Shown piece by piece: positions 62,067-62,142 of a DNA stretch of 64,000 nucleotides (its first letter is position 1; every line of letters starts with the position of its first letter). A program made the translations under genes and the position numbers. This DNA is from Eledone cirrhosa (lineage: Eukaryota): contig OZ024740.1 in the NCBI GenBank assembly GCA_964016885.1, positions 288,548,001 through 288,612,000 on the forward strand, read 5' to 3'. The notes beneath the pieces are model-generated. The model was not told the DNA's origin, searched no databases, and saw nothing but the letters and a program-made list of their open reading frames with translations.

Positions 62067-62142
62067 CTCCTGGACATGCAGTAAGCATGTTTCGCCACAA
62101 ATAAAGTGTAGAATCATACCACTGATGGCTTATCAACAGGAG
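62067..62142 (-). ncRNA. Type I hammerhead ribozyme, U3-A8 core variant
   Basis: Minus strand CTCCTG TTGATAA GCCA-[28 nt]-TGGC GAAA CATGC-TTACT-GCATG TC^ CAGGAG: all three helices pair, G10.1-C11.1 present, GUC triplet. Confidence 0.82.

Follow-up and report, generated by a model that had tools for sequence, protein, structure and literature searches.

A type I hammerhead motif in an ankyrin intron of Eledone cirrhosa, its dispersed Penelope-like repeat family and a predicted blocking hairpin

The ankyrin locus and its antisense hammerhead motif

The window, the whole 64,000-nt stretch of DNA analysed here (Eledone cirrhosa assembly GCA_964016885.1, contig OZ024740.1), covers part of an ankyrin-repeat gene on the plus strand. 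A host ankyrin-repeat exon lies at 54484–54669 (+; Pfam Ank, E = 4.7e-08), and the next ankyrin exon follows ~3.9 kb past the window end (locus L184). Between two ankyrin-repeat exons, a candidate in-frame host microexon of 30 nt was delineated from its AG/GT boundaries and frame at 60607–60636 (+), a position at which vertebrate ankyrin-2 has an alternative microexon. Because ankyrin exons occur on both sides on the plus strand, the hammerhead motif at 62067–62142 (−), 1.43 kb from the microexon candidate, lies antisense within an intron, as a preliminary description of this DNA had placed it (~1.4 kb). Three sequencing runs from one sample covered the intron and its flanks evenly and behaved like DNA, with the flanks of the hammerhead-bearing copy at single-copy depth.

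Other features were recorded at the same locus. Within the ankyrin locus, 42902–49738 is a strongly strand-skewed array in which a 30-nt unit recurs 227 times at 97% identity, and a run of N follows near 50 kb. An extremely abundant short SINE-like repeat (62610–62932) adjoins the hammerhead element, its summed contig depth being about five orders of magnitude above that of the single-copy flanks. Over 63279–64000 (+) extends a 240-aa frame that presumably resembles the beginning of the reverse transcriptase region in LINEs; Pfam gave no match on that part. In an ankyrin exon of the same gene at locus L185 (~1350–1450, +), the reading frame is lost at a homopolymeric A stretch, for which an indel in the assembly is a likelier cause than a broken gene.

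On the minus strand, the motif comprises helix I (62142–62137 paired with 62072–62067, 6 bp), the core UUGAUAA (62136–62130, with U3 at 62136 and A8 at 62131), helix II (62129–62126 with 62097–62094, 4 bp around a 28-nt loop), GAAA (62093–62090), helix III (62090–62085 with 62079–62074, 6 bp) and a GUC triplet whose C17 is 62073, placing the predicted cut at 62073|62072. The order of these elements makes it type I, and its core with a paired 3–8 position and its NUH triplet are those of that type. The three helices, with helix I open, are backed by covariation, helix II being only 3–4 bp long and ambiguous in alignment. The U3–A8 hammerhead first described from the letters was thereby reproduced base for base; an extra loop II pairing (AGUG/CACU) proposed with it is available in the window copy but does not hold as a general feature, the letters varying among copies.

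A strict descriptor (helices of 6/4/6 bp, C3–G8 or U3–A8 core) matched once in the 64-kb window and in none of 200 dinucleotide shuffles. Rfam detected no hammerhead in the window, either at the gathering threshold or at E ≤ 10, in line with the expectation that standard searches miss the U3–A8 form, and a metagenome scan with a 29-base pattern gave no matches. Folding without tertiary energy predicted a hammerhead share of 0.2–0.7% for the window copy which, like the single cutting construct among nine retrozyme constructs in a 2026 preprint (10.64898/2026.07.22.740005), would suit a motif that resembles a hammerhead by chance, or a dead fossil with no history of ribozyme selection in its family. 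The shuffle control and the compensatory changes among relatives in helix I, helix III and the tertiary 3–8 pair speak against such an origin, which we regard as extremely improbable. The window motif is a real hammerhead motif, for which self-cutting is predicted from sequence, and its intact core and helices would therefore make cleavage in vitro possible.

Core and helices are intact in three of the 29 sampled copies of the same subfamily (A, below), the window copy among them. This rarity, the short end branch of the window copy (0.029) and the microexon candidate 1.4 kb off could be read as co-option by the host, the ribozyme for example cutting an antisense transcript or influencing the nearby microexon; yet the orientation is antisense, and the finding was picked for intactness in a family whose decay has by chance spared ~10% of copies, so that co-option is very unlikely. 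Since the window copy is a single 5′-truncated antisense monomer, the ankyrin pre-mRNA would not be cut. In all likelihood the copy is inert, carried along antisense in the intron, and as a single intronic copy it probably matters little to the host gene.

A dispersed repeat of about 510 nt and its Penelope-like anatomy

The motif lies within a 5′-truncated copy of a ~510-nt ORF-less dispersed repeat at 61828–62243 (−), delimited by BLAST boundaries against relatives, a unit map and depth. The copy corresponds to about unit positions 98–513, and a few further bases may belong at its 5′ end. By comparison with family copies its 3′ terminus (61828–61840, −) falls at the family's main end point and, unlike in most copies, is not followed by (TA)n. 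Searching the 3.0-Gb assembly with a 171-nt query gave at least 45 matches, from 40 scored of 345 candidates, the main ones 85–95% identical; further queries were the 5′ and 3′ parts of the unit and two sister subfamilies. After duplicate removal, 193 family loci collapse to 147 distinct insertions, which are biased samples of a larger family (212–1479 first-look candidates per query).

In the longer copies the 3′ end of the unit is joined to its own start with no ORF between, and the longest stop-free stretch in three natural monomers is 43–79 aa. Wrap-around partial tandems through the unit junction occur in 36 of the 147 insertions and an inverted piece in 61, and 5′ truncation is variable. 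The 3′ end falls within one of two unit windows in 114 insertions, and (TA)3 lies within 20 nt of it in 92 insertions, against a background of 10.5% taken from an earlier count without duplicate removal. Partial tandems, 5′ truncation and an inverted 5′ piece constitute Penelope-like anatomy, to which the (TA)n insertion bias and fixed internal 3′ ends also correspond; together, the wraps, inverted pieces and (TA)n ends bear out the earlier assignment to a Penelope-like or retrozyme-type family. Among the 36 wrap pieces, 34 begin well downstream of the predicted cut site and the two longest pass it, with no pile-up of 5′ ends at that site, numbers too small to favour either circular or uncut templates.

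The preliminary description had also raised tandem organisation and a linked Penelope-like RT/GIY-YIG ORF, neither of which was found: two complete hammerheads in tandem occur in none of the 147 insertions or a further 40 scored matches sampled from the genome, and no such ORF is joined to the unit in the sampled copies. At locus L096, an upstream hammerhead copy begins inside the core. Small, non-coding and with a type I hammerhead, the unit fits the non-LTR retrozymes; having no ORF, it falls outside the autonomous Penelope-like elements (PLEs), which encode RT and GIY-YIG. Since the tandem array of retrozymes is missing from the sample, we class it as a non-autonomous Penelope-type hammerhead repeat. 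Judged from its sequence, it looks like a non-LTR retrozyme in its working and like a Penelope element in its apparent mobilisation.

The same genome contains 10,597 candidate GIY-YIG matches, of which 150 were scored, and about five GIY-YIG families with a CxxxxCxxC linker. Locus L061 is a near-intact PLE with a 938-aa RT and GIY-YIG frame and this linker; its two terminal repeats bear an identical U3–A8 minimal hammerhead, it terminates in (TA)n by the same end logic as the ~510-nt repeat, and its 3′ region exceeds 1 kb and is rich in short repeats. Four further loci (L062, L066, L070 and L072) were grouped with it as such elements, and canonical-core motifs were seen at two other PLE-region locus types (L063, L080). 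No autonomous element with the unit sequence was found by BLAST and model searches of 50 GIY-YIG loci (30 + 20) among the 10,597 candidates, and the autonomous partner is therefore inferred. ORF-less hammerhead monomers with Penelope-like insertion anatomy back the proposed role of PLEs as mobilising partner.

Splice-like words accompany the unit. A conserved (Y)nAG, a possible splice acceptor, lies at 62166–62170 (−), directly 5′ of the blocking strand described below, and is kept in subfamilies A, B and D; a donor-like GTAAGT near the unit start is present in 23 of 39 copies and falls in the stretch that the window copy lacks. Sequence alone would suggest that the two mark a retained intron; spliced-looking copies numbered zero. 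These intron-like signals resemble Penelope, and most PLE hammerheads are single truncated motifs (PMC4209133); the copies might accordingly be solo terminal repeats (pLTRs) of an autonomous PLE still to be found, of whose possible carriers, the 10,597 candidates, 50 loci were examined. Wherever sampled copies, 36 wraps included, extend upstream of the unit start, they continue into the 3′ end of the unit itself or into unrelated flank and never into an ORF, which makes solo terminal repeats an unlikely account of the family.

The family also looks old. The nearest relative of the window copy is 92.5% identical among sampled copies, for 117 longer copies the identity to the nearest neighbour has a median of 88.9%, and the only closer pairs among these share flanks or reach 96%. 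Six near-identical copies, considered as a young subfamily, were ruled out as passengers of 2.7–5-kb duplicated blocks; at loci L260–L265, a decayed subfamily-B copy sits in a block duplicated on at least six contigs with 90–98% identity. On account of these identities, the duplicated blocks and the lack of a double hammerhead, the element looks long inactive as far as sampled, and the earlier reading 'active or recently active' finds no support where the mobile element is concerned. The window copy, old and 5′-truncated, may yet retain the capacity to cut in vitro.

Core states, covariation and flank–loop II pairing

Pairing was compared in 80 of 84 distinct copies, three with insertions and one partial being left out. 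Across these, 86.9% of cells pair, against 22–46% for slid partners, so that homologous copies with conserved, covarying helices do exist, as had been anticipated. The 3–8 pair is U–A in 46 copies, C–G in 23, U–G in three and unpaired in eight, which supports, for this family itself, the earlier proposal that U3–A8 is compensatory. Helix I shows two double-sided changes (A–U in 45 and U–A in 21 copies; U–A in 44 and C–G in 26), and a helix III pair is G–C in subfamily A and U–A in D. Covariation in helix I, helix III and the 3–8 pair indicates that the source ribozymes were under selection, although the double-sided changes trace back to only a few events separating three or four source lineages and are not independent counts. 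RNAalifold returned no consensus structure for the 80 copies.

Core states were compared in three subfamilies. Subfamily A, which includes the window copy, has the U3–A8 core. In subfamily B, 20 of 29 copies combine C3–G8 with C4 and six of the 29 show C3–A8, and helix III has an A–C mismatch; the CUGAUGA copies of B were rejected as the source state, as decay at that CpG (12/29) matches that at other CpG sites. The more distant subfamily D combines U3–A8 (14 UUGAUAA, four UUGACAA and three UUGACGA among 26 copies) with a perfect 8-bp helix III. Covariation within D alone did not exceed that of shuffles, as neutral decay of copies from a single source would lead one to expect. In a tree of 107 of the 137 anchored copies (core columns kept, midpoint root, rough supports), D is split off by a long branch and B is nested within an A-like group. 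This nesting suggests, at the level of sequence, that U at position 3 is ancestral and C3–G8/U4C derived. Intermediate cores (C3–C4, C3–U4, and U3–G8 with C7) were noted at loci L115, L212, L217, L232 and L240, and possibly outline steps between the U3–A8 and C3–G8/U4C states.

The preliminary description overlooked both these sister core states and a complementarity of 18–21 bp between the 5′ flank and loop II. Folding and pair counts delimit the flank segment, or blocking strand, at 62145–62165 (−), and its partner in loop II at 62104–62125 (−), with a duplex of −22.8 kcal/mol in the window copy. The in-context fold of this copy has the flank–loop II hairpin trapping the core and lies, in calculations without tertiary energy, 2.8 kcal/mol below the hammerhead-constrained fold; the gap is unchanged on removal of the flank because another misfold competes.

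The pairing was also compared among subfamilies. Flank and loop II are only ~50% identical between A and D, and mean duplex energies are −19.7 (A–A) and −17.9 kcal/mol (D–D) for cognate partners against −10.8 (A–D) and −8.8 kcal/mol (D–A) for swapped ones. Duplex z-scores against shuffles are −4.8, −3.3 and −3.8, and the ribozyme strand pairs more strongly than its complement. With the A-versus-D register set by hand, the majority pairs are standard at 18 of 18 positions in both subfamilies, six being changed on both sides, while 13–14 of the 18 survive A/D swapping via G–U. The B–B duplex is weaker (−14.5), no better than the A–B or B–A swaps, with two pairs of the long hairpin broken and the register shifted at one end, and hairpin covariation in A and B did not exceed the shuffle test (67 of 500).

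A further segment at 62040–62050 (−) is the predicted active-state partner of the flank, forming with 62163–62153 an 11-bp distal extension of helix I. In 60 full-flank copies, 95.6% of its cells are paired, with one double-sided change between A and B; the extension is weaker in D, and its z against shuffles is about −1 to −1.5. In the model it leaves the proximal flank free for a short loop I–loop II pseudoknot, and the proximal flank–loop II pairs are kept across all subfamilies (94% of cells).

These proximal pairs, which do not overlap the distal extension, also suit a simpler account in which the flank–loop II pairing is solely an activating Watson–Crick pseudoknot that replaces the usual loop contacts, with no selected off state; such pseudoknots are given for ~40% of hammerheads in PMC3088659. 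The distal 7 bp, however, covary between A and D as well, and a helix of 18–21 bp leaves 3–7 nt of loop II to reach a helix II of 3–4 bp, so that on geometrical grounds the two should not coexist. We hold the pseudoknot-only account possible rather than probable. As the full helix, by its length, would seem to leave no room for helix II, separate off and on states are inferred, and the conserved hairpin is predicted by this modelling to lock a putatively self-cutting RNA in a viroid-like off state. The fuller scheme that follows is put forward tentatively: a two-state switch between the 18–21-bp off hairpin and an on state with helix I extension and pseudoknot, possibly tipped by splicing at the nearby upstream acceptor or by the Penelope protein, and, recorded in the fossil copies, a natural core path that takes in U–G, U–A and C–G at 3–8 together with U4C, all attenuated forms that would spare an uncut or circular template. 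A viroid-like rod of the whole monomer was rejected, since circular folds (59–65% paired, z −2 to −4 for either strand) surpass shuffles only to a moderate degree and do not distinguish the strands.

Proposed mechanism and relation to known systems

Taken together, the window copy is probably an old truncated copy of a repeat likely copied by the enzymes of PLEs. The source elements of this repeat are likely to have had a functional ribozyme, which the hairpin is predicted to keep in the off state. A source locus would have been transcribed to more than unit length and the transcript cut by the hammerhead; ligation may have closed the monomer into a circle, as it does in non-LTR retrozymes. 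The 5′ flank, which would be transcribed ahead of the remaining ribozyme sequence, would pair with loop II and block helix II, preserving circles or uncut precursors for use as templates; in the active fold, a short stretch of this pairing may serve as a loop I–loop II pseudoknot. A GIY-YIG endonuclease would then have nicked (TA)n, and reverse transcription, beginning within the RNA at one of two AT-rich sites, would have run through the intact ribozyme and sometimes past the unit junction. Why PLEs and animal retrozymes retain hammerheads, and how their RNAs escape re-cutting, is treated as open in PMC7229834, PMC8557442 and PMC11167929, and the family offers natural, covariation-backed pairs of constructs with and without the blocking strand and with U3–A8, U3–G8 and C3–G8/U4C cores.

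The U3–A8 core itself is not new: it was reported as a natural variant by Perreault et al. (2011, PMC3088659), and ~1,300 such motifs were described in Schistosoma PLEs by Cervera and De la Pena (2014, PMC4209133). Less usual are the blocking hairpin with its covariation and the occurrence of three core states within a single family. We found neither the ~510-nt family nor its hairpin described in the literature covered, repeat databases, subscription papers and supplements lying outside its scope.

The unit resembles the metazoan non-LTR retrozymes of Cervera and de la Pena (2020, PMC7229834) in its small, low-GC unit with one type I hammerhead, and in occurring as dispersed monomers beside autonomous PLEs (PMC7229834; 10.64898/2026.07.22.740005); animal retrozymes have been argued to derive from PLEs as non-autonomous forms and to occur often as dispersed monomers (Li et al. 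2026, 10.64898/2026.07.22.740005). Its large loops without archetypal contacts recall the mussel retrozymes. At ~510 nt it compares with retrozymes of 170–400 nt (PMC7229834) or 51–972 nt (10.64898/2026.07.22.740005), and it differs from the non-LTR retrozymes described there in that no tandem array was found in the sample, its cores are non-canonical and its ribozyme is predicted to be blocked. Linear and circular monomer RNAs characterise the known retrozymes and would be a prediction for the present repeat.

With the PLE hammerheads of PMC4209133 the repeat shares the U3–A8 core, partial tandems and inverted 5′ pieces, and an intron that may end next to helix I, as seen in Drosophila Penelope; unlike them, its unit has no RT/endonuclease ORF. 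Its helix III of 6–8 bp sets it apart from minimal PLE hammerheads, in which helix III is absent or a palindrome of 1–2 bp, and with a helix I of 6 bp no dimer is therefore needed on paper. Partial tandems, inverted pieces and 5′ truncation match the Penelope-like anatomy given in PMC8557442, and the two fixed internal 3′ end points recall the internal initiation of reverse transcription described in PMC11167929.

Among the hammerheads of PMC3088659 are found the same 3–8 covariation and Watson–Crick loop II pairing, activating six-pair pseudoknots being shown there; the loop II complement here exceeds the tested six-pair pseudoknot about threefold in length. The U4C of subfamily B is a low-activity viroid variant in that study, and the present repeat departs from the cases it describes in having U–A, U–G and C–G at 3–8 and U or C at position 4 within one family. 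A ribozyme predicted to be sequestered by complementary sequence is shared with plant LTR retrozymes and viroid circles, for which blocking by self-pairing is described as typical and, in animal retrozymes, as exceptional (PMC7229834); the present case differs from the plant and viroid systems in being type I rather than type III, in its local hairpin rather than a whole-circle rod and in its PLE-like anatomy. Finally, like the conserved intronic hammerheads of amniotes (PMC6155905), the window motif is of type I and lies in an intron, but it is an antisense repeat copy with many relatives, read in one genome.
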